From an uncultured Methanosarcinales archaeon (GTDB lineage: Archaea > Nanobdellota > Nanobdellia > Woesearchaeales > JACJVV01), in NCBI GenBank assembly GCA_964581515.1, contig CAZOOV010000001.1:180823-244822 (forward strand): a stretch of DNA of 64,000 bases. The letters run 5' to 3'. A program made the position numbers and the translations under genes. Under the pieces are notes generated by a model, which worked only from the letters and a program-made list of their open reading frames with translations, ran no database searches and had not been told where the DNA came from. Positions 3,587 through 49,783 of this stretch are shown here, piece by piece. Position 1 is the stretch's first letter. Each line of letters starts with the position of its first letter.

Positions 3587-4978
3587 ATGGCATTAAAACT
3601 ATTCAATACATTAGGAAGAGAAAAGCAAGAGTTTGTGCCTATTGAGAAAGGCAAGGTAAGCATGTATAGCTGTGGGCCTACTGTATACAATTATTTGCAT
3701 ATAGGAAACTTGCGTGCTTTTATGTTTGCAGATCTTCTTAAAAAATATCTGAGATTCAAAGGGCTTGAAGTCAAACATGTCATGAACATCACTGATGTAG
3801 ATGACAAGACTATAAGAGATTCTCAAAAAGAAGGAAAGAGCCTAAAAGAATTCACTGAGTTTTATACAAAAATATTTCTGGACGATATTAAAAGCTTAGG
3901 CATGGATCCTGCTGATGTAATGCCAAAAGCAACCGATCATATCAATGAGATGGTCGAACTCGTAAAGAAGATGAAGGAAAAAGGACATACATATGAAAAG
4001 AACGGAACAATATACTTCAAAATAACTTCAATGGAAGATTATGGTAAGTTAGCATGTTTAGATCTTGAGAATTTAAAAGATAATGCAGATGGAAGACTTA
4101 ATAATGCTGATGAATATGAAAAAGATGATGCAAGAGATTTTGCATTATGGAAAGCATGGGAAGAAAAAGATGGAGATGTATTTTGGGAGACTGACCTTGG
4201 TAAAGGAAGACCAGGGTGGCATATAGAATGTAGTGCAATGTCAACTAAACATCTAGGCGACCAATTTGATATCCATACAGGTGGAGTTGATCTCATATTC
4301 CCACATCATACCAATGAAATAGCGCAGACAGAAAGCGCTACATGCAAACACCCTTGGGTGAATTACTGGATACATAATGCACATTTAATAGTGAATGGAG
4401 AGAAGATGTCAAAATCAATGGGCAATTTCTTCACACTAAAAGATTTGACAGATAAAGGATATGACAAGCGAGCTATCAGATTTGAACTGCTAAAGACACA
4501 TTACAGGATGAAACTTGATTTTAGAGAAGATGAACTTAAACAGATACCTGAAACATTAGCAAAATTTGATGAGATTGTCAGCAAACTACAATCTGTCAAG
4601 GGAGATAAAGGAGAAGATAAGATCTCAGAAAAGTTCTTGAAAGAATTTGAGAATGCAATGGATGATGATCTGAACATTTCAGGAGGACTCGCTGTTGTCT
4701 TTGAATTCATAAAAGAAGTAAATAAGGAATTAGATAATAATGATGTAGGAGATGCAAAAAGCTATCTTGAAACATTAAAGAAGCTTGATTCTGTCTTAAG
4801 CATAATGAAATTTGAGACTGAAGAGATCCCTGCAGAGATAACTGAGCTTGCTGAGAAAAGGCTTAAGGCAAGAGAAGAGAAGAACTGGGAAGAAAGCGAC
4901 AAGCTTAGAGATGAGATTCAGAGCAAAGGCTATGAAATCCTTGATGAAAAGGAAGGATATAGACTAAAGAAAAAATAA
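3587..4978 (+). CDS. cysS: Cysteine-tRNA ligase
   Basis: YSCGPTVY, HIGN, GRPGWHIECSAM, DIHTGGVDLIFPHH, KMSKS. Confidence 0.98.
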   Translation: MALKLFNTLGREKQEFVPIEKGKVSMYSCGPTVYNYLHIGNLRAFMFADLLKKYLRFKGLEVKHVMNITDVDDKTIRDSQKEGKSLKEFTEFYTKIFLDDIKSLGMDPADVMPKATDHINEMVELVKKMKEKGHTYEKNGTIYFKITSMEDYGKLACLDLENLKDNADGRLNNADEYEKDDARDFALWKAWEEKDGDVFWETDLGKGRPGWHIECSAMSTKHLGDQFDIHTGGVDLIFPHHTNEIAQTESATCKHPWVNYWIHNAHLIVNGEKMSKSMGNFFTLKDLTDKGYDKRAIRFELLKTHYRMKLDFREDELKQIPETLAKFDEIVSKLQSVKGDKGEDKISEKFLKEFENAMDDDLNISGGLAVVFEFIKEVNKELDNNDVGDAKSYLETLKKLDSVLSIMKFETEEIPAEITELAEKRLKAREEKNWEESDKLRDEIQSKGYEILDEKEGYRLKKK

Positions 4979-4984
4979 GGAGAA

Positions 4985-5521
4985 TTAATATCCTCCTACT
5001 CCAATTACCACAATACCTTTTTCTTGAGCATAATCCAATAATGGTTTTGCTGGTTCTTTTGCTATAATACCATTCACAGTAACTCTTCTTGACAAATCAT
5101 CTACCATAGATGCATGATTTACTTCTTCCAAGCATACAGCTATATTATGTGGCCTTAATCCATTTGTATTTGTCATTACTGTTGCATTATTCGGGAGATC
5201 TTGGTCCCGGAAATACTGGTTTAGCCTTTCTACCAAAGTATCAGGGTGAAGATATACCATTGGAGCTGATGGAAGAGCATGACAAGCATGAAAGCCTGAA
5301 ATACTCCTTCTACTGCTACTTCTTCCTGAAGAACCAGGGGCTGATCCAAAACCTACTGATGAATGTGAAAATGGATCTTTTTGTGGAGCTTGTTCTTCAT
5401 CTTTTATGTTATAAGCCATCACAGCTAATTCATTATGTACTGCTCCACCTATATTTACTGGAACATATCTTGAATGTTCTAAACCTAGTGCTTTTGATAA
5501 TTTCATTGAGTCAACTTTCAT
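4985..5521 (-). CDS. Hypothetical protein
   Basis: 178 aa ORF, GAGG RBS upstream, convergent with cysS. Confidence 0.65.
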   Translation of the reverse strand: MKVDSMKLSKALGLEHSRYVPVNIGGAVHNELAVMAYNIKDEEQAPQKDPFSHSSVGFGSAPGSSGRSSSRRSISGFHACHALPSAPMVYLHPDTLVERLNQYFRDQDLPNNATVMTNTNGLRPHNIAVCLEEVNHASMVDDLSRRVTVNGIIAKEPAKPLLDYAQEKGIVVIGVGGY

Positions 5522-5753: not shown

Positions 5754-7451
5754 ATGATATTATATTCGACTATGAATTATTTTGAAGAACTCATTGAGTG
5801 GATAAAAGAGAATAAGCCTGATAAGGATAAACTCGCTAAACAGAAGGTCAAGCTATGCAGAAAACATGGCAAAAAGGAAATTCCTACTGATATTGAGATA
5901 TATTTACAGGCCACCATATATGATGCTAAGAAAATAAGAAGATATGTAGAAACAAAACCAACAAGAACTGGAAGTGGTGTTGCAGTTGTTGCTGTAATGA
6001 CAAAGCCTGCAAAGTGCCCTCATGGCAAATGCATATTTTGCCCTGGTGGAGTAGAAAGCGAATTTGGTGATGTTCCTCAAAGCTATACAGGCAAAGAGCC
6101 TTCCACTATGAGAGGGATGAGAAATGATTATGATCCATACAGAATCGTATTTAATCGGTTAGAACAATATATAGTAATAGGACAGAACCCTGAAAAAGTA
6201 GACCAAATAATAATGGGTGGAACTTTTTGCTCAATGCCTAAAAAATATCAAGAAAATTTTATTCATCATTCATTCAAGGCATATAATGATTTTTCTGATA
6301 TGTTTTACATTAAAGGTAAGTTAGATCTTAAGAAGTTCAAAGAATTCTTCGAACTGCCAGGGAAAGTCAATGATAAGAAACGTAGCATAAGAATAAAGAA
6401 GAAAGTGTTAGCTCTTAAGAAGAAAAATAAAAAAAGCCTTTTTGAAGAGCAGAAAAGAAATGAGAAAAGTGCTATCCGGTGCATAGGAATCACTGTTGAG
6501 ACTAGACCAGATTGCGGTCTTGTTGAGGATGGTATCAGATTACTTAGTCTTGGAGTCACTAGAATAGAACTAGGAGTACAGACAGTATATGATGATGTAC
6601 TAAAGAAAGTCAATAGAGGTCATAATGTCAAAGATTCTAAAAGAAGCATTGCCGAACTCCGTGATTTAGGATTTAAACTAAATTTTCATATAATGCCAGG
6701 ACTTCCTGGAGTTAGCAAGAAAAAAGATATAGAAAATTTCAAGACTTTCTTCAGAAACAGCTGGTTCAAGCCAGATATGCTGAAGATATATCCTTGCATG
6801 GTTATGCCAGGGACTGAGCTGTATAAATGGTATAAGAAAGGTAAATTTAAACCACTCATTACAAAAGAAGCAGCTGAAATAATTGTTGAAGGTTTCAAAT
6901 ATATCCCTGAATGGTGCAGGGTTATGAGAGTGCAGAGAGATATTCCAACATATGTGACTTCTGCAGGCGTTGACAGGACAAACTTAAGACAATATGTGAA
7001 TGAACTTGCCAGAAAGAAGAAAGTTAAGATAAATGATATCAGGGCAAGAGAGATCAGAAAGGAGAAAGTAAAAGAAAAAGGAAAGATAAAAGTAATTGAA
7101 TATATTGCCAGTAACAGTAAAGAATACTTTATTAGTTGTGAAGCTGATGGAAAATTACTTGGTTTTTTGAGATTAAGGCATGTTGTCAGGTCATTGCACA
7201 GTGCCATAACACTCGATAGCGGAGTAATTAGGGAATTACATGTCTATGGAAGTGCTGTAGGTATAGGAAAAGAAGGAGATATTCAGCATAAAGGCGTTGG
7301 TAAAAGACTTATGAAAAAAGCTGAAGAAATATGTCTGAAAAAGAAAAAAGATAAGATGGTTGTCATTTCTGGAGTAGGTGCAAGAGATTATTACAGAAAA
7401 TTAGGATATAAAAAACAAGGACCTTATATGGTCAAGAAGTTGAGACTATAG
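5754..7451 (+). CDS. elp3: Elp3 radical SAM/GNAT tRNA U34 acetyltransferase
   Basis: CPHGKCIFCPGG, QSYTGKEP, ETRPD, RVQRDIP, RELHVYG, QHKGVG, ISGVGARDYYRKLGY. Confidence 0.96.
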   Translation: MILYSTMNYFEELIEWIKENKPDKDKLAKQKVKLCRKHGKKEIPTDIEIYLQATIYDAKKIRRYVETKPTRTGSGVAVVAVMTKPAKCPHGKCIFCPGGVESEFGDVPQSYTGKEPSTMRGMRNDYDPYRIVFNRLEQYIVIGQNPEKVDQIIMGGTFCSMPKKYQENFIHHSFKAYNDFSDMFYIKGKLDLKKFKEFFELPGKVNDKKRSIRIKKKVLALKKKNKKSLFEEQKRNEKSAIRCIGITVETRPDCGLVEDGIRLLSLGVTRIELGVQTVYDDVLKKVNRGHNVKDSKRSIAELRDLGFKLNFHIMPGLPGVSKKKDIENFKTFFRNSWFKPDMLKIYPCMVMPGTELYKWYKKGKFKPLITKEAAEIIVEGFKYIPEWCRVMRVQRDIPTYVTSAGVDRTNLRQYVNELARKKKVKINDIRAREIRKEKVKEKGKIKVIEYIASNSKEYFISCEADGKLLGFLRLRHVVRSLHSAITLDSGVIRELHVYGSAVGIGKEGDIQHKGVGKRLMKKAEEICLKKKKDKMVVISGVGARDYYRKLGYKKQGPYMVKKLRL

Positions 7452-10400
7452 AACCATAATCATTCCTGACATCATCAGGGGATCTAAAAGTAATAGGTAT
7501 ACTATACACCTGAGGTCTTATGGATAAATCTTTTTCTAGGAAGTAAAATATATCATTATCTACTACTACAGTAGTTTCAACAGGTATGTCAATCTGTTTA
7601 TTTGTCTGAAAGTTCATCTCAATAACATTATTGTAAGAATATCTGTTCAAGACAAGCTTTCTTTGATTATCTGTAATATATGTAAAGAAATTAAGTTCCA
7701 ATTGACCAGTCTTATCATTGTCAATGTATGTAACCCTATCGTTCAGATCTGTATAGGACGCAGGTAGTGCACTTTGATAATATAATTGCCTCTGCTGTTG
7801 AAGGCCAATCCTTAGGGAGAGGTCTCTTTTTGCTTCAAGATTTAACTTTTGCAGAAGATTTATTTCTTGTGTTGTATTTACTGTGTTATTGTATATGATA
7901 TTAAAGTTTGAAGTGTATTCATCAACATCTTGTTTTATCATCATAACATAATTTGGATCAAAAACTTCTCTTGCATTGCCCTCATATGTTGCTTCTGTAC
8001 TGCTGAGTTTCCCTATTGATAATAAACCAATAATATCTTCTCTTACATATATACTATTTTCTCCAGACATATTTGCACAATTTTTGAAACAGATATGTTT
8101 ATTTTCCATATTACCATAACTGCTTACTGCAACTTCATATTCCTGAGGAAGATATCTGTATAAGCAATCCTTTTGTCTTAATGTTACATTTGCGACATAA
8201 GTTCCCTTTATGCTATTTAATCTCCCTATACCAGGGTAAGTTGTAGTAGATTGCAAAGTAGAATGATTTATGAAATACATCTCCCAGCTACTACCTCTTA
8301 CATAATTCTCTCTTGTATTGTCTGGCAATAATGGACCAAAATAAATCTCTTTTACAGACCATGAATTGTTGTCTGGTGATGAAGCATTGATGTATGTTAT
8401 GTTACCAGATGGACTGTAATGAATTGTTATTGCATCTGCTGAGTCTGAACGCATGTAAATTTCTACATCGTCATTATGAAGGATTGCTCTATGATTAGGT
8501 GATGGTCTTAACTCAATTGCTGTTATTTCATCTACAGATGAGTCTAAGTTTGCTATCCATGAACCTTTTATTACATTGTGTGCTAAAATGGAATTATTAC
8601 CTACTTCTATCAAATTCCAAAACATTGTTGCGTGCTCTGCTACTATCAAATCAGGAGTCTGGACTAAGTCTCCACCATGATTTATTATTATTCTCTTAGG
8701 ATTTGAAATTGTTATATCTCCATATGCCCTATATGAATCATCAATTGAAGAGATTATGAAACCTGAATAGGTCTGGAAGTCTGCATCGTAGGTTTGTAAG
8801 ATGAGTGCCATCAAGTCTGATGTTATCTGGTCTGATATTTCGTTAAAGTTTGCTGTGTTTCCTTGTGATACCTCTTCTTGCAGTAAAGTTAAATATGTTA
8901 GGCCTAATATCTGTAATGCTTCTGATGATAGATTATCTGGAATAGGTATTGATACTGAAATGTTTAATGGTTGAAGTGCTGTGTTTGCTATTGAGAGTAG
9001 AGATTGATCATGATCCCTGTTAATCCTTTCTATGAATAAATTCCCTAATGTTTCTAAATCAGTTGTAGATGTTGACGTTGGCAGTGATGGTGGTGGTATC
9101 ATAGTATTATCTAATTGATCTAGAATAGTTGCTGTGTTTGGGATTGTACTTAGGAATTCTCTTGCAGGGATTAAGTTTGGATTGTTGTTTGCATCTAATA
9201 AGCTGTGTTGGATGAAGTCATAGTCTATTGTGTAGTCTGGATCGTCTGTTGGGTAGCCTGTTAGAGCGTTTGGTGTGTATGTTTGGCCTTGCATTTCTAT
9301 GATTGCAGGTGATGAATCTGGAAGGCGAACTTGTGTTTTGTCTTCATCAAAGTTTATTTGTGCAACTGGCTGTTCTGTATCTGGTTGTACAATTGTGGGA
9401 GAAGAAGATGGTAATTCTGAAACAAGAATATCATCAGGTGGAAGATATATCATTACAGAAGTATCATCATTTATAACTTCAGTTGTTGAAGCACCATCAA
9501 GTGACTGATCTACATGGACATCTGTGAATGCATTAACACCTACACTTATTTCTTGATCATCTCCTTCATGATCAAAAACTACTTCTGCAGGTGAGTCCAT
9601 AGGTCCTGAAGCCATATCTTCTGCAGTAGCAGTGGGATCAGATGTTGAAGTAAGACCTACATTATCTATAGTTTCTTCTATTTTATCAAGAGAATTAGAA
9701 GGTGGTAATTCTTCTGAAATAGTTTCTTCATCACCATTATCTTCTTCAGAGATATCTTTTAATATTTCTTCATAAGGTTTTAAATTGGTCTCAGGAAGTG
9801 CAGGTTCATAAGTTGATCTAAATTCATGAATATCGGATTGTTCTATATTAGATAAACCAAAACATTCTGGCAAGCAAACTTCAGGCCAAACATAGTTAGG
9901 ACCATCATTATCCTCTACTAAAGTGACATCTCCATTCTTAATTGCTTCATCTATCTTTTGAAAATCCTTACCAGTCATTGCTTCTAAATATATAATTGAC
10001 TTTGATGGATCTGTTTTAAAATTTGAATAAAAATATTTATTTAATGTTCCTTGAAGTAATTCATCATCTCCGTCATCAATAATTAATTGACGTAATCCTT
10101 CCTCATTTGTTGTTACAAACTTACTAACACAAGTACCACAATTAATTGCAGTGTCTTGATTGTTCATTAATTCTTTTTGTTGGTTAGCATCTAATTTATC
10201 ATATAACTGATTCTGTGATTTTATGATATTCTGCTGTTGTGTTCCTTCTAGATCATACCATACACTTTGTAACTCAGTCTGATCAATTGTATTTAATAAA
10301 GCAGGGTTATTCAGATTATCTGAATTTGATAAGAATGAATATAGATTATCACCCTTGCATTCTGTAAGAGATTCACCATCACAAGTAGCATTAATTAAAG

Positions 10401-10452
10401 GTAATACTATTATAATAATTAAAAGAATGCTAATATTATTATTAATTTTCAT
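7432..10452 (-). CDS. Large secreted surface protein, paralogue B (1006 aa)
   Basis: Signal peptide ending ...LPLINA; acidic, Ser/Thr/Pro-rich middle; C-terminal ~400 aa aligns by eye with 11606..14491. Confidence 0.85.
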   Translation of the reverse strand: MKINNNISILLIIIIVLPLINATCDGESLTECKGDNLYSFLSNSDNLNNPALLNTIDQTELQSVWYDLEGTQQQNIIKSQNQLYDKLDANQQKELMNNQDTAINCGTCVSKFVTTNEEGLRQLIIDDGDDELLQGTLNKYFYSNFKTDPSKSIIYLEAMTGKDFQKIDEAIKNGDVTLVEDNDGPNYVWPEVCLPECFGLSNIEQSDIHEFRSTYEPALPETNLKPYEEILKDISEEDNGDEETISEELPPSNSLDKIEETIDNVGLTSTSDPTATAEDMASGPMDSPAEVVFDHEGDDQEISVGVNAFTDVHVDQSLDGASTTEVINDDTSVMIYLPPDDILVSELPSSSPTIVQPDTEQPVAQINFDEDKTQVRLPDSSPAIIEMQGQTYTPNALTGYPTDDPDYTIDYDFIQHSLLDANNNPNLIPAREFLSTIPNTATILDQLDNTMIPPPSLPTSTSTTDLETLGNLFIERINRDHDQSLLSIANTALQPLNISVSIPIPDNLSSEALQILGLTYLTLLQEEVSQGNTANFNEISDQITSDLMALILQTYDADFQTYSGFIISSIDDSYRAYGDITISNPKRIIINHGGDLVQTPDLIVAEHATMFWNLIEVGNNSILAHNVIKGSWIANLDSSVDEITAIELRPSPNHRAILHNDDVEIYMRSDSADAITIHYSPSGNITYINASSPDNNSWSVKEIYFGPLLPDNTRENYVRGSSWEMYFINHSTLQSTTTYPGIGRLNSIKGTYVANVTLRQKDCLYRYLPQEYEVAVSSYGNMENKHICFKNCANMSGENSIYVREDIIGLLSIGKLSSTEATYEGNAREVFDPNYVMMIKQDVDEYTSNFNIIYNNTVNTTQEINLLQKLNLEAKRDLSLRIGLQQQRQLYYQSALPASYTDLNDRVTYIDNDKTGQLELNFFTYITDNQRKLVLNRYSYNNVIEMNFQTNKQIDIPVETTVVVDNDIFYFLEKDLSIRPQVYSIPITFRSPDDVRNDYGSIVSTS

Positions 10453-10470
10453 TTTGTTATTAATATAGTC

Positions 10471-11604
10471 CTATTTAGGTATTGCAAGATATACATTAGG
10501 TGATACATCGTAAATATATTTGATTGTTTTACTGCCTTCTTTCAATAAAACAAAGGCTTTTCCAGATTGATCCCCTATTATACCTTGAGCCATCTTATTA
10601 CTCAAATCTACACTCCCAATCATTTTTACATAAGGATTAATTTCTGTAACTAAATCATATAATTCTTTTTTCTTCGCTTCTGATAAATAATCTAAACTTG
10701 GAAAAAAGGGCAATAAAACACTTCTTAAGTTTTGACCTGGTTTAATTTTAACTATTCTTGCATTTTTTGGTGTCTTTGAGATGGATTCCTTAGAATGATT
10801 AATATCTAATTTGCCTGCTAAAGCTAAATCAAGATAAAAATCTTTTAGTGAACCTTTGTATTTTGAATCTAAAGAAGTTGCATCAATAAATCTTGCTATC
10901 TCTTGATAATCATTAAACTCATTTACGTTTTTATTAAAGTCAGAAGGCCAAAGTCGCCCCCTTTTTGCGAATACTCTTTTTGCAATTGAGTCTATTGTCC
11001 TTTGATAAGCATCTGATGTTGTATCTATCCCAAGATTATTTTTACGTATGTATTCATCAACAGCTTTTCTATATGCATCTTCTTGTAATCCTGATTCTAA
11101 TTTTATCTTAGCAGGTAGTAATTTTATTCTAGATGTAGGATATTGATTAGCCTGTTCTATTCCTTGTCTTTGTGGTTCTGGTGTTTGTTGATTTGTCTGT
11201 GCTATCGCTGGTTGAGCTGACGCAAGCATAGCTCCTGCTGCTGCTACTCGCATTGGTTGTGTTGCTCTTCTTGTGAATCTTCTCCATAAGGAAGGCCTTA
11301 GATCATCAAGATGATCTATATAATGAATAGCAGAAACTTCATGGTTCAGTTCAGAGGCCAATCTTGATTGCTCTGTTTGACTTGGATCGTTTTTTGCAAG
11401 CATTGCTTCAAGCATTTCTTTTATCCTCTTAACCTCAGCCTTAGCATGCACAACCTTGTCATCTCTTGAATGTAGCTTTGAGAGCTCCTTTAATACATTC
11501 TCAACTATAGACTTTCTCTGTTCTATATCCTTTCTAAGCCATTTCCATTGTGCAGGCAAATCACCTAATTTGTTAAGCTTAGATAGTTCTCTCTTGATTC
11601 CCAT
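10471..11604 (-). CDS. Protein with internal signal-like segment and C-terminal LysM-like motif
   Basis: RRFTRRATQPMRVAAAGAMLASAQPAIA at ~aa 108-135; C-terminus VKIKPGQNLRSV...VTEINP...SPNVYLAIPK. Confidence 0.7.
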   Translation of the reverse strand: MGIKRELSKLNKLGDLPAQWKWLRKDIEQRKSIVENVLKELSKLHSRDDKVVHAKAEVKRIKEMLEAMLAKNDPSQTEQSRLASELNHEVSAIHYIDHLDDLRPSLWRRFTRRATQPMRVAAAGAMLASAQPAIAQTNQQTPEPQRQGIEQANQYPTSRIKLLPAKIKLESGLQEDAYRKAVDEYIRKNNLGIDTTSDAYQRTIDSIAKRVFAKRGRLWPSDFNKNVNEFNDYQEIARFIDATSLDSKYKGSLKDFYLDLALAGKLDINHSKESISKTPKNARIVKIKPGQNLRSVLLPFFPSLDYLSEAKKKELYDLVTEINPYVKMIGSVDLSNKMAQGIIGDQSGKAFVLLKEGSKTIKYIYDVSPNVYLAIPK

Positions 11605-11605
11605 C

Positions 11606-14491
11606 TTAAGTAGCTATCAATTCACCATAATCCTGCTTGACATCATCAGGAGGTTTGAAATAGATCCAGTTGTCATAAACATTAGGCTGCAACGAGAGAT
11701 CATCCTCAAGGAAATAAGTTATGTCATTATCAACAACAACATTTGTTATGACAGGAATGTCTACAGGCATAGTCTCAATCGAATTGAGTTCAATCATATT
11801 ATTGTATGAGAATCTGTTCAAAACAAGTTTCCTCTTGCCATCCATGACATAAGTAAAAAGATTCAGATCAATATAACCTTCATCATTGTCTATGTAACTG
11901 ACTTTCTCATTCAAATCTGTAAATGAAGCAGGAGCTGCATTCTGATAATATAACTCACTCTGAAGTTCCAATGATTCACGCACTGAAAGATTCCTTTTTG
12001 ATTCTCTGTTTAATCTGAAAAGAAGATCATCCTCAGCAGATCCTGTTATTGAATTTGCTACAAGTGTGTTGAAGTTTGATGTGAACTCAAGATTTGAATC
12101 CTTAGTCAATAATAATGAATTTAGATCAAATACCTCTCTTGAATTGCCTTCATAATCAATCACTATGCTTCCCATAGTCCCAATTGAGATAACACCTTGA
12201 TTATCATCTCTAACATAGACAGAATTATCTATATTGATATTACTGCAATTAATGAAACAAATTATCTTCTCTTCAAAAGTACCATATCTACTTGATTTAA
12301 CTTCGTATTTTGCAGGAAGATATCTGAAGAGTGCATCTGAAGACTTTAAAGTTACATTGGAAACATACAAACTTTTGTTAACATCAAAATCACCTATAGT
12401 AAATCCAGTTATAGGATTTGTGAAGATCCCTTGTGTTTCTTTTGATGCAGCAACCATCTGTTGTAACTCCACTAAATCTATTGTAAATTGCTCTCCTCTA
12501 ACATAGTATGTTCTTTCTGTATTAGTTAGCTCTGGACCAAAGTAAACTTCAATTTCTGAACCATCACTACCGATTGCAGTTATCTTATTCATGTTTCCAC
12601 TTGAATCATAATCTACAGTTACTGATGCTGAGCCACTGCCTGATGATTGATCAAACCTGATGTCAATATCTGCATCATCATTCTGGATAATTGCTCTTCC
12701 TGAAGCTGGAGGCATTACTGTCATACTTTCAATAGTTCCAGAGATAGGGTCTCTAGTGACAATAAAACTACCACTTACAACTTCATTGTCAATTGTTAAA
12801 GTTGCATCTTCTGCTGTAATTACAGATGGTGTTACTGAAACATCTCCATTCCTATTTTGTATGTTTACATTTCCATCTTCAATGTTTTGTCTTCCTGATG
12901 CGTCGTAGCCTGACGTCCCCCATTCAAAAGAAGAATATCCAGATGTACTTGCGCCAGATGAAGTACACATACCTAAATAAGCATTCCAATATTGTCCACT
13001 AGGACATCCATCTTCAGGCATACCTGTAGTATCTGCTTCTTCAATATCTCCTGAATCTATCAAGGCCTGGATCTCCTCTTCAGTCAATGTTGAAATATCA
13101 CCTACACCTTCACCAGTCACAACATATGGATCTCCAGTTCCTGAAGGGATTATATCCCCCACAGAAGATTCTTCTTCAGGTTCTTCATCAGAACTGACTA
13201 TTACTTCACTGTATCCTTGTGTAAATACTACTTCTGCACCACCATTTTCGTCAAATATAAGAATTCCATCAGCATCAAGAGCAATATCTCCTCCAGTATT
13301 AATTATCTCTACTGTTGAAGCTGCAGCTGGTGGATTCTCTGCTAAAGAACCAGTCTGTCCAAGGAACTGACCTGTATTTGGATCATACCATTCAACTCTT
13401 CCAGTCTCTTCATTGATAGTATAAGCACGACCATCATCAAAAGTACTAAGTCCAGAAGTATCTGAAATACTTGGAAGAACATCATCTCTCCAATCCTCTT
13501 CACCCACCATTGGAGCATCATCATCAGAGCCTAATGAAAAAGGATCATCAGTAGGATATAATGAGAAAGCAAAATCACCACCAAATTGCGTATCAACAAG
13601 AGTAATTGCACCAGCATCTGAACCACCCAATTGAATTGGACTGCCATCTGCACTTGTAATCGTAAAATCGTGAGAAAGTTCTCCTGATATTGATGTCTCG
13701 TCACCGATTGTAATTTCTATTACAATTGAATCGTCATCTGCTGCTTCACTTGTCTCAAAGATATCAACTGTCGCTCCATTATATTCTGTTCCAAGCGAAG
13801 TCAAATCAAGTGCATTTCCATTTACAGTTAATGTATCAGTATCTGGGTCGTATACTACATCTTGTGCAGAATCAAAATCAGATTCAGGCATAACAAAATT
13901 GATTGAGCCTTCTGCTCTTGAGTCAAGAAATTCTGCTGCATAATCACTATCTAATAATCTTCCACTATCACTAAAATAATCTTGGAAAGATTCTTCTAAA
14001 TCAGGGTCATTAAAAAGAGCGTCTCCACTACCTACATTAGCACCGATATAAGATTCCATCGCACGTGTTAAACCAGGTTCACTATCCCAATCGACACTGC
14101 TAATAAATTCTTCTGCCTGAGAATCTGAAAGCTTATTTATTGCATTTGCATCTGTAGATGGATGTCTTAACAAAGCAACCTGATCCTCATAAGGAATATT
14201 ATCCCATGAAGCTTGAAGATCTGTATCTGAAGCAGTATTGACAAAATTTATCTTTTCTGAAGGACCCATATAACCCCATGCTTCTTGGAACTGCTGTTCA
14301 CTCAAAGCTGAAGGATTGCTCTGTGCCAGACCCATCTTATCTTCTTTTGACATTTCATCCCAATCATCTACTCCTTCGCCGCCACCTGTAGATACACTTT
14401 GTCCAGCTGCAGGAGCAGGTGGTGCATATACACTAGCAACTAACAAAATCATTATTGTTAATGTTATTAGATTGATTATATTAGTTCTCAT
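11606..14491 (-). CDS. Large secreted surface protein, paralogue A (961 aa)
   Basis: Signal peptide ending ...VASVYA; very acidic beta-rich body; shared C-terminal region with 7432..10452. Confidence 0.85.
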   Translation of the reverse strand: MRTNIINLITLTIMILLVASVYAPPAPAAGQSVSTGGGEGVDDWDEMSKEDKMGLAQSNPSALSEQQFQEAWGYMGPSEKINFVNTASDTDLQASWDNIPYEDQVALLRHPSTDANAINKLSDSQAEEFISSVDWDSEPGLTRAMESYIGANVGSGDALFNDPDLEESFQDYFSDSGRLLDSDYAAEFLDSRAEGSINFVMPESDFDSAQDVVYDPDTDTLTVNGNALDLTSLGTEYNGATVDIFETSEAADDDSIVIEITIGDETSISGELSHDFTITSADGSPIQLGGSDAGAITLVDTQFGGDFAFSLYPTDDPFSLGSDDDAPMVGEEDWRDDVLPSISDTSGLSTFDDGRAYTINEETGRVEWYDPNTGQFLGQTGSLAENPPAAASTVEIINTGGDIALDADGILIFDENGGAEVVFTQGYSEVIVSSDEEPEEESSVGDIIPSGTGDPYVVTGEGVGDISTLTEEEIQALIDSGDIEEADTTGMPEDGCPSGQYWNAYLGMCTSSGASTSGYSSFEWGTSGYDASGRQNIEDGNVNIQNRNGDVSVTPSVITAEDATLTIDNEVVSGSFIVTRDPISGTIESMTVMPPASGRAIIQNDDADIDIRFDQSSGSGSASVTVDYDSSGNMNKITAIGSDGSEIEVYFGPELTNTERTYYVRGEQFTIDLVELQQMVAASKETQGIFTNPITGFTIGDFDVNKSLYVSNVTLKSSDALFRYLPAKYEVKSSRYGTFEEKIICFINCSNINIDNSVYVRDDNQGVISIGTMGSIVIDYEGNSREVFDLNSLLLTKDSNLEFTSNFNTLVANSITGSAEDDLLFRLNRESKRNLSVRESLELQSELYYQNAAPASFTDLNEKVSYIDNDEGYIDLNLFTYVMDGKRKLVLNRFSYNNMIELNSIETMPVDIPVITNVVVDNDITYFLEDDLSLQPNVYDNWIYFKPPDDVKQDYGELIAT

Positions 14492-15471
14492 GGTGACACC
14501 GTCAGCTTGAATTTCTTAGATACCTTATATGTGTCGTCATCAAGCGTTATAGTTATATTATACTGGCCAATATCTAGTGCATCCGGGACATAATTAATCA
14601 ATCCAGTATCCTCATCTATGTCAAATAATACAGTATTGTCATAAAACTTACAATGATGTGATGCATTTATCTGCATAAGGTAAGGAGTACCTACAAAAAC
14701 TGTAATGTTTGGTAAGTTTCCTTCAAAATCCAGTATTGATGGCAGATAGTGATCATCATAGATTGCAAAAGAGAACTTCAAAGGATTGGTTCTTAGTCTT
14801 GCTGATGTGTTTATCATATCAATTACTTTGATATTTCCAGAATAAGGATTAATTATCATCTCAAAATCAGTATCATAGAGCTTATCAAGCAACATAAGAT
14901 TAGGATAATCAAGAAGATCATTAACCACTATATTTCTCAATTCCACCATCCTTCCATAAGGTATAAAATGCCTTGTCTGATAAGAATTATACCTATAAGT
15001 TACATCATCTGCAACTGTCTCAAGTGCATAAATCAATTCTGCATCAACTGACTCTGGAAAGATTGTTACTTTTGCTTCAGGAGAACCTGTTTTCATTATA
15101 TGTATAGTTGAATCATCAAGACATGAATCAATATTTTCTTCTATATACCTTTCAATCTCACTCTCCATAAATGATATACTTGGTGATGTATTTTGATTTG
15201 AGTAAATCGAATACGCAAAAGTACGCTTAGTTGTAGTAAGATTAGGATTATAAGTATAAATAAAACCTCCTTGCGCTGCTAAAATCTCAATTGAATCAAC
15301 TACATTGAATTTCATGCACTCTTTTACATAATATGGCACTGGCTGACTTGTATCTTTCAAAAACCAACGCATAGCGCCTGAATCGCTTGACGCCAGAAGA
15401 AATACAATAAAGACAATAACAAAGATTATGCCTAAAAGAACGAATACTGATACCTGAGACTTATTTTTCAT
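14488..15471 (-). CDS. Class III (pilin-like) signal peptide protein with C-terminal Ig/cadherin-like domain
   Basis: Preferred start MKNKSQ|VSVFVLLGIIFVIV (KxSQ + hydrophobic); C-terminus DIDEDTGLINYVP...GQYNITITLDD. Confidence 0.7.
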   Translation of the reverse strand: MKNKSQVSVFVLLGIIFVIVFIVFLLASSDSGAMRWFLKDTSQPVPYYVKECMKFNVVDSIEILAAQGGFIYTYNPNLTTTKRTFAYSIYSNQNTSPSISFMESEIERYIEENIDSCLDDSTIHIMKTGSPEAKVTIFPESVDAELIYALETVADDVTYRYNSYQTRHFIPYGRMVELRNIVVNDLLDYPNLMLLDKLYDTDFEMIINPYSGNIKVIDMINTSARLRTNPLKFSFAIYDDHYLPSILDFEGNLPNITVFVGTPYLMQINASHHCKFYDNTVLFDIDEDTGLINYVPDALDIGQYNITITLDDDTYKVSKKFKLTVSP

Positions 15472-15613
15472 TTTTAAGATCCTCCTCAATGAGATGTTCA
15501 ATATAATTAGAAACCTTGATCATACGGCTAGCTAGCTTTTTCTTCAGTTTTTCTATCAACTTATCGTCAATAGTTGCTGAGATGCGTGTTTTTGTTCCTG
15601 ATCCTTTACGCAT
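15461..15613 (-). CDS. Ribbon-helix-helix (CopG-like) transcription regulator
   Basis: MRKGSGTKTRISATIDDKLIEKLKKK...VSNYIEHLIEEDL; true start is the internal Met of track ORF 15461..15838. Confidence 0.75.
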   Translation of the reverse strand: MRKGSGTKTRISATIDDKLIEKLKKKLASRMIKVSNYIEHLIEEDLKNEK

Positions 15614-15803
15614 TATGGGTGATTTTAGAGTGCGGCGTTTATAAATATTACTAATATTACTCATAAGATTAATATTTTTAATAATATAAGTAATATTAGT
15701 ATTACGAATGTGAAAGATAAGAAAATGCAAGTATATTATAGTGCCTAATTTTGAAAAAAAGAAAACAAAATTATTTGTAAAAGAAGAAAACAAAATTATT
15801 TGT

Positions 15804-15921
15804 AAAAAGTCTGCTTGCACGGCGCAACGAGAAATCAAAGATTTCTGGTGTTTATTGCATAAACAACCATAATTATCCTTTTTAGGATAATTATCGCCTC
15901 ATTAGGCAAAGCTGACTTTTT
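15804..15921. repeat. Multi-hairpin palindromic element, copy 1 (REP/MITE-like)
   Basis: AAAAAGTCTGCTTGC...GCAAAGCTGACTTTTT terminal inverted repeats enclosing three hairpins; near-identical to 22685..22764. Confidence 0.85.
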
Positions 15922-15943
15922 ACCCATATAAGATTAGAAAGAA

Positions 15944-22652: not shown

Positions 22653-22684
22653 ATTCAATTAAGATAATTTCTAAATAAATTTAT

Positions 22685-22764
22685 AAAAAGTCTACTTGCA
22701 CGGCGAAACCATAATTATCCATAAATAGGATAATTATCGCCTCAATGGGCAAAGTTGACTTTTT
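22685..22764. repeat. Multi-hairpin palindromic element, copy 2
   Basis: AAAAAGTCTACTTGCACGGCG...ATAATTATCC-loop-GGATAATTATCGCCTCA...GCAAAGTTGACTTTTT, between convergent genes. Confidence 0.85.
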
Positions 22765-22815
22765 ATTCAATATAAACAGATAATATTTCTTAATAAAATA
22801 ATAAAACGTATTTTC

Positions 22816-29660: not shown

Positions 29661-30314
29661 ATGGATGATCCTAACTCGCCTTTGAATTCAAATGTGCCTT
29701 TACCGAAGATATTAGAACTACGCGCACAAGGTACACCAAATAATCAGATAATTCAAATTCTACAAAACGAAGGATATAGCAGTGATCAAATATTTGATGC
29801 CATGAATCAAGCAGATATGCAGCAGAATATTGGACAAGGAATGGCTGCACCTGAGACTGCTCCACAGCAAGAAGGTATGGAAAATCCTATGCAAATGCAA
29901 CCAGAAGGATATGGTGGTTATGAACAACAACAAGGATATGCACAGCCAGGAGCTGGAGGAATGGGTATGGGCGATCCCAACAGAGAGATGATTGAAGAGA
30001 CTGCTGAAGCAATAATCAATGAAAAATGGAAACAAATAGGAGGAAGTATGCAAAAGCTTACTGAATCTAAGGATAAAATAGAGCATCAAGTAAACAAATT
30101 AGAAGCTGATTTTAAACATCTTCAGGATAATTTTGACAAACTACATCAAGCATTGATTGGAAAAATAGGTGAATATGACCAAAATATCCTTAATGTGGGA
30201 ACTGAAATAAAAGCTATGGAAAAAGTATTCCAAAAGATACTCCCTACATTCACTGAGAATGTCAATGAACTCTCAAGAATGACACAAAGAGTAAAAGAAG
30301 GACATAAAGAATAA
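29661..30314 (+). CDS. Coiled-coil protein with Gln/Gly/Met-rich linker
   Basis: Small N-terminal helical domain, disordered linker, long C-terminal coiled coil. Confidence 0.8.
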   Translation: MDDPNSPLNSNVPLPKILELRAQGTPNNQIIQILQNEGYSSDQIFDAMNQADMQQNIGQGMAAPETAPQQEGMENPMQMQPEGYGGYEQQQGYAQPGAGGMGMGDPNREMIEETAEAIINEKWKQIGGSMQKLTESKDKIEHQVNKLEADFKHLQDNFDKLHQALIGKIGEYDQNILNVGTEIKAMEKVFQKILPTFTENVNELSRMTQRVKEGHKE

Positions 30315-30335: not shown

Positions 30336-30351
30336 GCAAAGCGGACTTTTT
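30336..30351. repeat. Solitary right end of the multi-hairpin element
   Basis: GCAAAGCGGACTTTTT vs GCAAAGCTGACTTTTT of copy 1; between convergent genes. Confidence 0.55.
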
Positions 30352-30392
30352 ACTTGTTATATAATAAAAATATAAGAGAATTCTTTCAAGTC

Positions 30393-31771: not shown

Positions 31772-32359
31772 CTAATCTGATTTTTTTGATGATGTTGACT
31801 TTCCTTGATCTGCTCCTTTCATAACAAACCACATGAATAGTACAACAATGATTAATAATACAACTGACGACACCACAGTACTGTTATTGAAATCTGCTAA
31901 AAAGCCAAATAAAACCTGCAACCATGTACGGTTACTTTCTGTCGTGATTGCATTAAGGAATATAAAAATAATTGATACAAACATAATAATCATAAAAATA
32001 GTTGACCATGGCTTCTCAAGATAGACAGGTCCTTCTTCTTCTTTCATGAATGAACCAATCAACATAAGGAAAAATACCGATAATAATAACAAGACTACTA
32101 TTTGTGCTGCAGTCTGATTAACTATTGCAACAATCCTACTTGAGGCAATCGTTAGAAACGCTATAACAAAAGCAGTCATTGCATTAAGATTCTTTTTAGT
32201 TACTTTTGTACCTTCAACTACATCCATACCAAGTACTTTTGTCTTCTCTAAAATTGCAAAGACAATTGTAAACACTAATAAGAAAGGTAGTATTACATCA
32301 TATATACCTAATTTATCAAAAAAAACTAGTGTTCCCCTGAATGTTGATACTTCTGCCAT
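31772..32359 (-). CDS. Multi-pass membrane protein, paralogue 1
   Basis: GIYDVILPFLLVFTIVFAILEKTKVLG motif. Confidence 0.85.
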   Translation of the reverse strand: MAEVSTFRGTLVFFDKLGIYDVILPFLLVFTIVFAILEKTKVLGMDVVEGTKVTKKNLNAMTAFVIAFLTIASSRIVAIVNQTAAQIVVLLLLSVFFLMLIGSFMKEEEGPVYLEKPWSTIFMIIMFVSIIFIFLNAITTESNRTWLQVLFGFLADFNNSTVVSSVVLLIIVVLFMWFVMKGADQGKSTSSKKSD

Positions 32360-32504
32360 TAGATAAAAATCTATTAATCATAATATATAAATCTTTCTGT
32401 TTTTTATATTGACCGAAAAAGAAGATTTTATATATTATAGTCGACTTAATTACTTTAAACATAATATCATCAATTTACAACGTTCGTAAACTGCCAGGCC
32501 CACG

Positions 32505-32984
32505 ATGGAAAAATTTCTTGAACTCCAGGAGTCAGCGTTAACATATCAGAAGAACGCTGAACAAGGTATTAATTTTACTTATCCTTTGGTCAAAGAGAAT
32601 AAAGTACTCCTAAGTGTTGTAAACAACCTATTTTTGGCTGGAACAAACATAATGGGGAGTATTTTACACTATGAACTGCTATATAAGCGTATACCTGCAT
32701 TTAATGATAATTTTGAAGCAAAATATAGGTTAATGCGAAGTAGAATCATGGAAAAATACCATCTTGACGCCCAGTATCTTAAATTAGTACGTGATTTGAA
32801 AGAAATAATAATAGCACATCACGAATCCCCTATTGAATTCTCAAGGGGATCAAAATTCGTCATTTGTAATGATAATTACGAACTGAAGGAAATATCCCTT
32901 GAAAGCCTGAAAGATGCCATGAGAAAAACAAAATTATTTATAGATGAAGTCATTAGCATAACAAAGCAGAAGGAAATTATTTGA
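32505..32984 (+). CDS. Hypothetical helical protein
   Basis: 159 aa; EFSR motif; possibly a distant relative of the next ORF. Confidence 0.75.
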   Translation: MEKFLELQESALTYQKNAEQGINFTYPLVKENKVLLSVVNNLFLAGTNIMGSILHYELLYKRIPAFNDNFEAKYRLMRSRIMEKYHLDAQYLKLVRDLKEIIIAHHESPIEFSRGSKFVICNDNYELKEISLESLKDAMRKTKLFIDEVISITKQKEII

Positions 32985-33117
32985 TAGGTTATGGGTCATG
33001 AACACTTTATTTGCATATAGCAAGTAGAATTTGCCGATTATCAATTTCTTCTCAAGTAAGGCAAAAATACAATAATATGATAAATATTCAATAAATAAAT
33101 ATGAAAGGTGCAAACTA

Positions 33118-33579
33118 ATGCAAGAATCACTTTTTTATGCTTCACAAGAAATGAAAAGAGCTGAACATCTATTATATGTCAGTCTAAAATATACAAGAAC
33201 GGGAGATGTAATAAAGAGCTTAGTATCCAGACTAATAGCATGTTTTGATTTTGTTATAGACGGAATGTTAGAAATAGAAGAAGAAAAAGGTAGTATTGTC
33301 GAAGTACCAAACAGCCCTTTTGCCAAAGTAACAGTATTAAAGAGAATATATAAAGATAATGAAGAGATGTGTGTATATCTTGATTACTATCTCCTACTGA
33401 GAAAAATATCAAGAAGCAATTCAGAAGCATCTCATGAGTTCAGGAGAAATCTTGTATTAAGAGTTAAACTCGATGATAAAGAGGTTGAAATTACAATCGA
33501 TATTTCTGGAGATTATTACCATAAAACTCATGATTTCTTAAAATTTATAAAGGACATCCATATATTAGATGAAAAATGA
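33118..33579 (+). CDS. Hypothetical helical protein
   Basis: 153 aa; AEHLLYV and EFRR; ATGA-coupled to minD. Confidence 0.75.
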   Translation: MQESLFYASQEMKRAEHLLYVSLKYTRTGDVIKSLVSRLIACFDFVIDGMLEIEEEKGSIVEVPNSPFAKVTVLKRIYKDNEEMCVYLDYYLLLRKISRSNSEASHEFRRNLVLRVKLDDKEVEITIDISGDYYHKTHDFLKFIKDIHILDEK

Positions 33580-34391
33580 GAAGTGTGGTTATCGCATCAG
33601 GCAAAGGTGGTGTAGGAAAAACTACTTTAGCCCTTAACCTTGCACTAGCACTTACAAGATATGGTAGACAAACTATACTTGTTGATGGGAATTTTGATTT
33701 TCCCCATGTTGGACTTATGCTTGGTAAATCAAATTTTGAAGAGACAATTATTTCTGCAATTGAAGATAGGAAGAATATAAAAGAAGTAGTGTATAAACAC
33801 CAGTCAGGACTCAAAATCGTACCTGGAAATATATCTTTAGAACATTTACACAAAAAAGATATCAATAAATTCAATAAATTAGTTAATCAATTAGATGAAT
33901 ATGCTGAAATTGTCATTGTTGATTCTGGGCATGGATTTAACAAAGAGAATATAGAAGTAATTGGTAATTGTACTGATATAATTCTTGTAACTACTCCTGA
34001 TTTTGTATCTGTTACAGAGACTCTAAAACTTTTAAAGATTATTAAACAAAATCCTAATTCTAAAATATTAGGTGTGATTGTAAATAAGGATTCAGGAAAA
34101 GATTATGATATGAAAGTAGAAAATATACAAACGTTACTTGGAGAGAAAGTAATTGGGGTTGTACCTGAACATAAGAGCGTCAAACAATCATTGAAACTTA
34201 AACATCCACTTATATATAGCCATCCAAGTTCTGCTGCAACAGAAGCGATTGAAAAAATTGCATGTAATCTAATAAACAAACCATATCAAAAAAAAGAAGT
34301 TGTGAAAAAGACAAAACTTGTAAATATTATGGATAAAGTAGGACTAAAGAAATGGTATGAAACACTTCTAGATGAGGAGGATGAAGATTAA
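33576..34391 (+). CDS. minD: MinD/ParA family ATPase
   Basis: SGKGGVGKTT deviant Walker A, LVDGN, IVPG, VIVDSG, LVTTPD, GVIVNK. Confidence 0.88.
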   Translation: MRSVVIASGKGGVGKTTLALNLALALTRYGRQTILVDGNFDFPHVGLMLGKSNFEETIISAIEDRKNIKEVVYKHQSGLKIVPGNISLEHLHKKDINKFNKLVNQLDEYAEIVIVDSGHGFNKENIEVIGNCTDIILVTTPDFVSVTETLKLLKIIKQNPNSKILGVIVNKDSGKDYDMKVENIQTLLGEKVIGVVPEHKSVKQSLKLKHPLIYSHPSSAATEAIEKIACNLINKPYQKKEVVKKTKLVNIMDKVGLKKWYETLLDEEDED

Positions 34392-34930
34392 TGCCTAAAA
34401 AAAAAGAAGTGAAGAAAAATAATAAGAAAACTAAAACTATTTCCCAAGAAGAAATCACTTCTTCTACCTTAGAGCGCATTAAAAGGCTTGAAGACATTCA
34501 TCAGAGAAAATTAGAAGAACATACTTCTTCTGATACAACTGCTTTTTGGACATTCCTATTAATTGCTATTATTACTAATTTTTTCTTATCATTCATATTA
34601 GTATTCTTATTAGTATTTCTTAATGACCCGCTTTTATATGCATTAGTTATAATAATTGGTCTTAGTTTTGGATATGTTTATACATTTCTTATCCATAGCC
34701 TTAGACATACTTTCTTCCATCATCATATGTATTCCAAGATGTTTATATTCATCACAGGAGCAATAAACATATTTTATATTGTAACCACAAGTGAGATTGT
34801 GTTCAATGGATTTAATATACCAAATGATTTCTATAATCAGATAGGAATTCCAATAGTATATTTCATAGCTTATCTTGCACCTTATTTCCTTGAGAAGATG
34901 TGGAAAGTATTGTTTGGAAAAGCGTTTTAA
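34391..34930 (+). CDS. Four-TM membrane protein
   Basis: Basic N-terminus followed by hydrophobic helices; translationally coupled to minD. Confidence 0.75.
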   Translation: MPKKKEVKKNNKKTKTISQEEITSSTLERIKRLEDIHQRKLEEHTSSDTTAFWTFLLIAIITNFFLSFILVFLLVFLNDPLLYALVIIIGLSFGYVYTFLIHSLRHTFFHHHMYSKMFIFITGAINIFYIVTTSEIVFNGFNIPNDFYNQIGIPIVYFIAYLAPYFLEKMWKVLFGKAF

Positions 34931-35023
34931 TACTCAAAAAAGCATACTCATGAGTTTTACTTTTTTGGTCGAAATCCTCTCAGGAAACTCACAACTTCAA
35001 TTGTGAGAGGATTTCATTACGCA

Positions 35024-35037
35024 AAAAGCTTTATAAA
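35024..35037 (+). promoter_or_regulatory. BRE-TATA promoter of tRNA-His
   Basis: AAAAGCTTTATAAA about 30 nt upstream of the tRNA. Confidence 0.5.
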
Positions 35038-35067
35038 ACAAAGTTAATTTATCTGATTAAATTATAT

Positions 35068-35206
35068 GGCGGCCTTAGTGTAGTCTGGTTAGCATAGAAG
35101 ACTGTGGACGATTGCTCACCTGTTTACAAAAACAGGCAGAAATCTTCTGGCCCGAGTTCAAAACAGCCTTGATTTCTTCAAGGTTGGTGAAAGTCTCGGG
35201 GGCCGC
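35068..35206 (+). tRNA. tRNA-His(GUG) with two introns (37/38 at 35108-35141; 59/60 at 35163-35192)
   Basis: Encoded G-1, acceptor GCGGCCT/GGGCCGC, C73 discriminator, anticodon arm GAAGA-CTGTGG^A-TCTTC, T arm CCGAG-TTCAAA^T-CTCGG; relaxed BHB at both junctions; CCA not encoded. Confidence 0.92.
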
Positions 35207-35221
35207 CCTTTTTTCTTTAAG

Positions 35222-35836
35222 ATGAAAGGAACTATAAATGGTAAAAAAGCAAGAGAATATGATAAACAAGTAAATGCAACTACAAGAAGCAATAAGAAAA
35301 ATTCTTTCCTTAATAGAGAAATTAAAGGCAAAAAGAATATAATTGTAGACCTATGCTGTGGAAGTGGAATTTCTTTAGATGTTTTACTTACAAAAGCTAA
35401 AAAAATCTATGCAATTGATGCTTCTGAAGAAATGATAAGTATTTGCAAAGAAAAAGTAAAGAATGAAAAAGTAAAATTTATTGTTTCTGATGTTAGGAAT
35501 GTCTCTATAAAAGATGAAGAATGCGATTATGTCATCATAAGAATGGGATTGCACCATATCAGAGATAAACAAGGAGTTATTGAAGAAGCATATAGAATTT
35601 TAAAGAAAAAAGGAAAATTATTAGTCATTGATAGGTTTAGATGTGAAAACATCATAATGACTTATCTGAAAGATATAATAAGAAATATTCATATGGGGAT
35701 GAATGCATTCCAACACCATTATATTAAATTAAATGAGTTTTATAAGATGATAAATGGAAAATTTAAAGTAATAAATAAGTTTGAACACAAGATTAAGTTT
35801 TATACAAAAGCAAACATCGTCTTAAAAAAGATCTAA
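35222..35836 (+). CDS. Class I SAM-dependent methyltransferase
   Basis: VDLCCGSG, YAIDAS, FIVSDV, RMGLHHI, RILKKKGKLLVID. Confidence 0.88.
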   Translation: MKGTINGKKAREYDKQVNATTRSNKKNSFLNREIKGKKNIIVDLCCGSGISLDVLLTKAKKIYAIDASEEMISICKEKVKNEKVKFIVSDVRNVSIKDEECDYVIIRMGLHHIRDKQGVIEEAYRILKKKGKLLVIDRFRCENIIMTYLKDIIRNIHMGMNAFQHHYIKLNEFYKMINGKFKVINKFEHKIKFYTKANIVLKKI

Positions 35837-35925
35837 TATTCTGATGTAACCATTAATTAGTACTACACAAAGTTTATAATATTTTTCAGTGGATAGTTAT
35901 TATTCAGTGGTGGGGTGTTAATATA

Positions 35926-37985: not shown

Positions 37986-38089
37986 AACAGATATAATTTT
38001 AATTGATGTTTTAAAGATTTGTTTCTTTGAGAATATAAGAAAAAATGATTTAGATGTAAGAATTATGTAGAAAAAAAGTGTGAGGGAGG

Positions 38090-38240
38090 ACAATCTCACT
38101 AACGTTCTTTGCATAGTACTAATGTACTATACAATCTCACTAACGTTCCAGGCCTAGTACTATGTACTAGACAATCTCACTAACGTTCTTTGCATAGTAC
38201 TAATGTACTATACAATCTCACTAACGTTCCAAGCCCTCCC
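38090..38240. repeat. Tandem hairpin repeat array downstream of tRNA-Leu
   Basis: ACAATCTCACTAACGTTC x4 at 38090, 38131, 38171, 38212 with alternating 23/22-nt hairpin spacers. Confidence 0.95.
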
Positions 38241-49286: not shown

Positions 49287-49306
49287 ATTAACCGAGGGGA
49301 ATTTTA

Positions 49307-49768: not shown

Positions 49769-49783
49769 AAGGAGGGAATAAGA

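Follow-up and report, generated by a model that had tools for sequence, protein, structure and literature searches.

A short, hairpin-forming family of probable MITEs in Woesearchaeota

The dispersed palindromes described here are, in all likelihood, a family of MITEs that are mobilised in trans by a transposase making 8-bp staggered cuts. Each copy appears to be a non-coding DNA transposon of ~85-130 bp, in which two imperfect terminal inverted repeats (TIRs) of ~30 bp enclose a short, AT-rich hairpin. The element is multi-copy, intergenic and found in either orientation, and 8 (sometimes apparently 9) bp of target DNA are duplicated per insertion, which points to a transposase with staggered cuts; this would be a DDE-type enzyme, supplied in trans by an autonomous insertion sequence (IS) with matching ends. 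Elements of this kind are ordinary, but the family itself is previously undescribed: neither it nor any MITE from Woesearchaeota turned up in a non-exhaustive literature search. An earlier note on this DNA had proposed a mobile palindrome resembling REPs or MITEs, or else a structured 3' RNA element. It is the MITE-like version that was borne out: the element has TIRs and 8-bp target duplications, it is present at multiple unrelated loci, some copies are nearly identical, and orthologous sites are empty.

Little has been catalogued of the mobile elements in DPANN archaea, in whose tiny, tightly packed genomes every intergenic insertion counts. A MITE family with an accompanying covariance model offers a marker for strain-level variation and gene flow between Woesearchaeota, a handle for finding the parent transposase, and a clean natural data set on how pairing is maintained in a DNA palindrome of drifting sequence. 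It also carries a lesson for annotation, in that the element is not an RNA gene.

Copies in the window and their archaeal host

The window, meaning the whole stretch of 64,000 nucleotides that was analysed, is archaeal, with 33% GC, and encodes valS, the RFC large subunit, an archaeal-type UMP kinase, Nop5 and an intron-containing tRNA. The valS product is also encoded in a marine metagenome assembly scaffold, and in JGI and Logan contigs, while the best homologues of the window's ValRS bear the names Candidatus Woesearchaeota or Nanoarchaeota. The host is a marine Woesearchaeota MAG.

Two full copies and one isolated end lie in the window, all on the plus strand. Copy 1 (15802-15923; GTAAAAAGTC...GACTTTTTAC) is a long form that scores 78 bits against the covariance model of the family, R1 (E=1e-23), and copy 2 (22683-22766) is the short, standard form (85 bits, E=4e-26). 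The earlier note had placed these copies at 15804-15921 and 22685-22764, with shared arms, a GGCG/CGCC stem and a hairpin, all of which were confirmed in the sequence. The left arm common to both, AAAAAGTCTRCTTGCACGGCG, is 21 nt long, with zero chance matches expected, and the common right arm, CGCCTCAWTRGGCAAAGYTGACTTTTT, extends over ~29 nt; both copies also have the 4-bp GGCG/CGCC stem and the ATAATTATCC/GGATAATTAT hairpin. In copy 1, the left arm, or left TIR, including the invariant core GCACGGCG, occupies 15802-15824, the central AT-rich hairpin 15869-15894, and the right arm, or right TIR (CGCCTCATTAGGCAAAGCTGACTTTTTAC), 15895-15923. By analogy with the copies in another genome, Woesearchaeota MAG.4 (JBLKOW01), its true ends may lie ~4 nt further outward on each side, at 15798-15927.

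Copy 1 is equivalent to copy 2 plus 38 nt, corresponding to the two extra hairpins that had already been noticed. These are restricted to the long form, and lie at 15830-15864, between the GGCG stem and the central hairpin (AGAAATC-AAA-GATTTCT at 15830-15846, and GTTTAT-TGC-ATAAAC at 15850-15864). The central hairpin of copy 2 (22711-22737) has the same stem as that of copy 1 and, as previously reported, a different loop (ATAAATA). The reported replacement of an outer-stem G-C pair by A-T was likewise found, with G15813-C15912 in copy 1 corresponding to A22694-T22755 in copy 2. Both copies fold far more stably than shuffled sequences on both strands (z = -5.5 to -6.6), and equally so on either strand. 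The lone right end is also real, and slightly longer than first described, spanning 30336-30357 (GCAAAGCGGACTTTTTACTTGT) rather than 30336-30351. It matches the 15-nt terminal pattern exactly, starts 22 nt past the stop of the ORF at 29661-30314, and has neither left arm nor centre; model R1 does not score it as a full element, and it may represent a third insertion cut down to one end. No further full copies were found by model R1 in the window, or in the ~16 kb past its ends.

Copy 1 sits after valS, and copy 2 lies between a convergent pyrH-like gene and a 102-aa gene. A clean 8-bp target duplication is absent at both, which is consistent with these being older insertions. The flanks of copy 2 contain an imperfect direct repeat of ~35 nt (p ~0.015). 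At copy 1, a tandem duplication of ~25 nt, read from the sequence (GAAAACAAAATTATTTGTAAAA(A)G x2; 15761-15809, plus strand), crosses the junction between the flank and the left end of the MITE, such that its first unit duplicates the first ~12 nt of the element. As this junction duplication is one-sided, with no flanking repeat, a candidate 24-nt 'target duplication' of copy 1 was rejected.

Anatomy, covariation and spread of the family

A comparison of 20 copies revealed the same components in every one. The outer stem varies in sequence among genomes, with its complementarity kept; part of the inner stem, CTTGC/GCAAAG, is conserved and has one bulged A; an asymmetric internal loop sets AC opposite TC-NNNN-G; an invariant stem, GGCG(C)/(G)CGCC, is accompanied by a bulge of 3-5 nt on the 5' side only; and an AT-rich hairpin, which varies among copies yet remains complementary, extends for 9-13 bp. 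The left TIR reads GTA(G/C)GTAAAAAGTC-N-RCTTGC, and the right end, in reverse complement, GTAAGTAAAAAGTC-N-RCTTTGC; in MAG.4, the true ends set by the flanking repeats are GTA(G/C)GTAAAAAGTC...GACTTTTTACTTAC. The copies measure 84-122 bp in the window, ~94 bp in MAG.4, and ~140-170 bp in the MAGs L061 and L053, in which the TIRs reach ~36-45 bp. No ORF fits inside the element. The ends carry A5/T5 in the window genome and MAG.4, and T5 is absent from the copies in L053, L060, L061 and L108.

The earlier description of a structure conserved over sequence was accurate. In an alignment of these related sequences, fitted to the structure of model R1, standard pairs occupied 94.5% of 560 cells, against 38-49% when partners were slid by 1-3 columns, with the outer-stem cells being 95% paired. 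Changes on both sides were evident in 21 of the 30 pairs, and none of 500 shuffles matched the observed pairing values. Fold conservation in this family is thus unusually strict. Yet G·U and A·C each filled 8 of the 560 cells, and RNA under selection normally tolerates G·U far more often than A·C. Hence the pairing behaves as DNA pairing.

The arms recur around other centres in the window population. When the contigs of a DNA run (X1) were compared with copy 1 at ≥80% likeness, 26 matched, in which the same arms enclosed eight different centres, in addition to two long-form copies; the population contains ~10 copies of the family. The 21-nt left arm and the right arm were 95-99% conserved, with the centre being replaced by, among others, ATAATCACAAAAT-AACAG-ATTTTGTGATTAT, ATATTTTTCTTT-TGAT-AAAGAAAAATAT, ATAATTTTCTTT-CAT-AAAGAAAATTAT, ATAAAAATC-ATATTA-GATTTTTAT and ATAAAAATTA-GTAATA-TAATTTTTAT. 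The second long-form copy has diverged, with changes solely in hairpin loops and junctions, and its existence indicates that the extra hairpins travel along when the element moves, making 'plug-in arms' an apt description. The word depth of the right arm in this run was ~4x that of the left, which suggests either more solo right arms like that at 30336-30357, or other families sharing the arm.

Copies are also present in other genomes. Among the matches listed from a scan of genome collections, which also included chance matches in GC-rich bacteria, were at least 14 copies in MAG.4, at least one in Woesearchaeota SI047_bin129, and at least four in three low-GC MAGs titled 'uncultured Methanosarcinales'. 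The ValRS of MAG.4 is 67% identical to that of the window, and the arms are ~93% identical between genomes in which ValRS is only 67% identical. Elsewhere, the right-arm pattern matched 18 sequences in a metagenome contig collection that does not include the source contig, all by chance in GC-rich DNA; in viral contigs, the strict pattern had no matches, and the loose pattern 43, all GC-rich and weak against model R1; and BLAST found no match in plasmid and phage collections.

The three MAGs titled 'uncultured Methanosarcinales archaeon' (L053, L061 and L108) have 31-35% GC. This taxonomic label looks doubtful, and the MAGs are probably Woesearchaeota-like. The G6PD/6PGD genes of L108 are 58-63% identical to those of the window, and in the same order, tying this MAG to the window; no conservation of the family across phyla is claimed.

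Three of the MAG.4 copies contain a second repeat, of 161-210 nt, inserted at the identical right-arm point GAC^TTTTT (L070 ~3620-3790, and L085 ~6700-6915 and ~5070-5283, all on the minus strand; contig JBLKOW010000001.1). This repeat is GC-richer and strongly self-complementary (TGTCAATCGAAAAYCGAC...GTGGAAAAAGCAGATTTTAC), with no Rfam match, and its longer versions have extra small hairpins (AGAAATGAAATTTCT) resembling the extra arm of copy 1. One composite of MITE and second repeat has TAATTAA direct repeats at its outer ends, and may move as a unit.

Insertion as DNA and alternative readings

Exact direct repeats of ≥8 nt are present in the flanks of 10 of 18 copies; shuffled flanks had a mean of 2.2 per 18, and a maximum of 6, over 300 shuffles, and only 3.6% of pairs of mismatched flank partners reached 8 nt. 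In nine copies, the repeats abut the ends of the inverted repeats directly, and are 8 nt long, or apparently 9 where the adjoining base is ambiguous: AACTAAAC (L026), TCCTTAAC (L079), GATTTATA (L086), AAACATAC (L051), CATTTCAC (L052), TCCTTCAA (L068), TTTTCTTT (L060), CATACTGA (L061a) and CAACTTTCC (L061b). The flanks of L120 and L122 match at 7 of 8 bp. The copies at L026, L079 and L086 are near-identical, and have different flanks on different contigs, which points to recent movement.

The empty-site comparison advocated in the earlier note was made with the closest relatives, L128 (ValRS 81% identical) and L129 (72%), which are syntenic around valS and pyrH, and both window sites proved empty in both. 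The spacer containing copy 2, between the UMP-kinase and 102-aa genes, measures 163 nt in the window, against 31 and 22 nt in L128 and L129, respectively; that containing copy 1 is 280 nt, against 141 and 102 nt. This copy 1 spacer, between ValRS and the ribbon-helix-helix (RHH) gene, is without an element in L128, L129 and L175, and the valS-adjacent site is empty in MAG.4, a genome that carries the family. Model R1 found no copy in L128, L129 or the likewise syntenic L130, and four further DNA runs, at low depth, contained no empty alleles within the population.

All three window copies lie just after gene ends, as originally observed, but this does not extend to the family. The 15 copies with both neighbours known, as taken from long ORFs, comprised nine in tandem spacers (5 sense, 4 antisense), three in convergent spacers and three in divergent spacers. 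For intergenic insertion, both the sites and the orientations look random. Where a contig holds several copies, these point the same way (2/2 in the window, 2/2 in L061 and 3/3 on the MAG.4 contig), but a replication-strand hypothesis was dropped, as orientation did not consistently follow local GC or AT skew. A tie to a particular downstream gene was similarly rejected: three copies precede 269-aa ORFs, but the proteins are unrelated.

The suggested search for a RAYT/TnpA or IS transposase with matching ends found none in the DNA examined, which covered the window, its extensions and the MAG.4 loci. There were no transposase or integrase Pfam families among the called genes of the 64-kb window and ~16 kb beyond; no transposase gene or autonomous partner in ~100 kb around the MAG.4 copies, nor in the viral, plasmid and phage collections; and no multi-copy proteins, used as a proxy for IS transposases, near the MAG.4 copies.

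Some features of the family sit awkwardly with a MITE of the simplest kind. Firstly, the core is asymmetric, with AC facing TCNNNNG and a bulge on one strand. Secondly, the outer TIR varies among genomes while the inner core is constant. Simple double-stranded TIR recognition does not predict either pattern. Thirdly, the strictness of the pairing exceeds the need of a transposase binding two duplex ends. This strict, compensated pairing, together with the invariant asymmetric core, underlies a less probable but conceivable reading in which the folded form is the working form, with either the transposase acting on an extruded cruciform or hairpin, or the hairpin and T5 tract having been co-opted, in these highly compact DPANN genomes, as a portable two-way transcription stop or insulator. 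If true, either version would be a new form of archaeal MITE biology, and a transposase acting on the cruciform or hairpin would explain how an element of 80-95 bp brings its ends together.

The complementary arms cause either DNA strand, or any transcript, to form a single long hairpin. With the A5/T5 ends found in the window genome and MAG.4, each insertion therefore puts a hairpin and T5 tract on both strands, which could possibly act as a bidirectional stop signal in the archaeon. For a MITE moved in trans by a staggered-cutting transposase, a requirement at the DNA level would be the most likely reason for pairing having been kept throughout by compensatory change. The hairpin or cruciform might be needed to join the two ends, given that the element is far shorter than the persistence length of DNA, and the AT-rich centre and 3-7-nt loops are features favouring cruciform extrusion; alternatively, template-switch correction could operate within the quasipalindrome. 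Another possible reason would be host-level selection for insertions that act as harmless two-way hairpin-plus-T5 stops.

It is improbable that the element is instead a structured RNA, such as a 3'-UTR stabiliser, a terminator or a family of small RNA genes, of which the fold was selected and the spread secondary. The strong covariation and the invariant nucleotides of the internal loop would both suit an RNA, but G·U pairs do not outnumber A·C mismatches, and the target duplications and empty orthologous sites show insertion. T-tracts terminate archaeal transcription, and in two genomes the stem is followed by T5 on both strands, but these ends are missing from the copies in L053, L060, L061 and L108. 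Similarly, the position of the three window copies after gene ends is offset by the lack of any orientation preference relative to genes across the family, and by three of 15 copies lying between divergent gene starts. No Rfam 15 family matched the element, either in the window at the gathering score or, at E up to 1, in six copy-bearing loci. Four metatranscriptome runs from the same studies contained no element sequence, an uninformative result as the organism's own genes were absent from them too. The structured 3' RNA element of the earlier note is not supported.

Particular RNA motifs were also rejected. In the bulge-helix-bulge motif, a 4-bp helix lies between two bulges of 3 nt, one on each strand; in this family, a 4-5-bp GGCG(C) helix lies between a 2x7-nt internal loop and a 3-5-nt bulge, such that the sizes misfit, and the topology fits the minus strand only. 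A kink-turn has tandem sheared G·A / A·G pairs adjoining a 3-nt bulge, but the non-bulged strand has GU (minus) or AC (plus) where GA is needed. An intrinsic terminator is at odds with three of 15 copies being in divergent spacers, with sense and antisense copies being equally frequent, and with T5 missing from the copies of four genomes; a consensus scan does not flag the window copies.

Even less likely is a REP/REPIN-like or IS200/IS605-derived (PATE) element, for which an HUH Y1 transposase (RAYT/TnpA) would mobilise a folded single strand of DNA. REPs have no target duplication, a conserved 5' GTAG and an accompanying RAYT gene. The family resembles REPs and REPINs in comprising intergenic imperfect palindromes with co-varying stems and tens of copies per genome, its pairing is DNA-like, and a conserved fold with a variable sequence would suit recognition of a folded single strand. 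However, its copies bear 8-bp target duplications, and to our knowledge neither Y1 single-strand transposition nor REP dispersal leaves any (IS200/IS605, RAYTs), which argues against movement of this type. The right end carries TTAC, the target tetranucleotide of IS608, as a resemblance only, and the 5' GTAG is not conserved, with this position being GTAG, GCAG, GCTG or GTTG. Nor was a Y1 transposase, or a RAYT, gene seen in any Pfam-annotated locus, and copy orientation is unlinked to local GC skew. With target duplications present, and no such transposase gene in the window, its extensions or the MAG.4 loci, the REP variant of the original proposal is not supported. An integron attC-like site, in which the folded bottom strand pairs at its boxes, leaves a spacer unpaired and ends in a variable structure, has a negligible chance of being correct and is already effectively refuted: integrons are reported in DPANN archaea, and the architecture is alike (outer box, asymmetric spacer, inner box and variable hairpin, which is branched in copy 1), but conservation falls on CTTGC...GCAAAG rather than on the R''/R' consensus (RYYYAAC...GTTRRRY), the copies are kilobases apart among housekeeping genes in both orientations rather than in a cassette array, no integrase is nearby, and the copies bear their own 8-bp target duplications, which argue against integron recombination.

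Known systems and other features of the window

Prokaryotic MITEs are described as intergenic, AT-rich elements that have TIRs, form stable stem-loops, lose their direct repeats gradually as they age, and are sometimes nested; those listed from archaea are Sulfolobus SM1-SM4 and elements of Halobacterium and Haloquadratum (PMC10969869). This family is similarly small (<~500 bp), non-coding, AT-rich, intergenic and multi-copy, with TIRs, short target duplications and a stem-loop. It differs in consisting almost solely of TIRs and a hairpin, in its invariant, asymmetric inner core, and in that the parent IS was not found. The Correia elements of Neisseria have a TA target duplication. These, and the BOX, RUP and SPRITE elements of S. 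pneumoniae, also have modular hairpins, variable numbers of internal modules, nested insertion, and a terminator-like hairpin with a T-run (PMC10969869). Unlike these bacterial elements, which have other sequences and target duplications, the archaeal family adds modules inside a fixed pair of arms.

Among autonomous elements, ISDge4 of the IS66 family has the TIRs GTAACTGC.../GTGACTAC..., a GTAAC start and an 8-bp direct repeat (PMC12898284). The consensus terminus in MAG.4 and L060, GTAAGT..., together with the 8-bp target duplication, is similar, with the agreement being limited to the first four letters and the duplication length, and no IS66-type transposase was seen in the loci. Duplications of 8 bp are also generated by IS6, ISL3, IS256, IS1595 and ISH6, and IS66 is therefore a lead rather than an assignment.

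Several other features of the window were noticed. Between copy 1 and a ribbon-helix-helix-like ORF of 67 aa (15461-15664, minus strand), inverted AT-rich repeats (taatattactaatattac...gtaatattagtattac) occupy 15664-15760. This block is kept in the relatives L128, L129 and L175, and is probably the operator or promoter of the 67-aa regulator gene. Two large paralogues of 1006 and 961 aa are encoded at 7432-14491 on the minus strand, with stretches of 70-74% identical DNA near their 3' ends; they are acidic, Ser/Thr-rich and signal-peptide-like, have no Pfam match, and are probably surface proteins.

The intron-containing tRNA gene (38289-38422, minus strand; 134 nt) was detected by Rfam and not by ARAGORN. 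By eye, it resembles tRNA-Leu(CAA): its variable arm is long, and an intron of ~47-50 nt follows the anticodon loop. Just 3' of it is a pair of direct repeats of 66 nt each (38089-38154 and 38170-38235), which are 98% identical and lie 81 nt apart. The stretch at 29-38 kb is ORFan-rich, with a ParA-like gene (33576-34391) and many small genes without a Pfam match, and the solo MITE end at 30336 falls inside it. The repeats and this stretch could mark an element integrated at the tRNA. At ~32000-36000, the cumulative GC skew turns from falling to rising, and the strand on which most genes lie changes from minus to plus; a replication origin or terminus could lie here, or the coding strand may merely switch.

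On the plus strand at 48741-55536, an oxidative-stress cluster of FUR, rubrerythrins, ferritin, rubredoxin and desulfoferrodoxin is followed by an oxidative pentose-phosphate set, comprising a 6-phosphogluconolactonase-like gene, G6PD split into N and C ORFs, and a 6PGD-like gene. Such a set is uncommon in archaea, and L108 has the same three pentose-phosphate genes in the same order.
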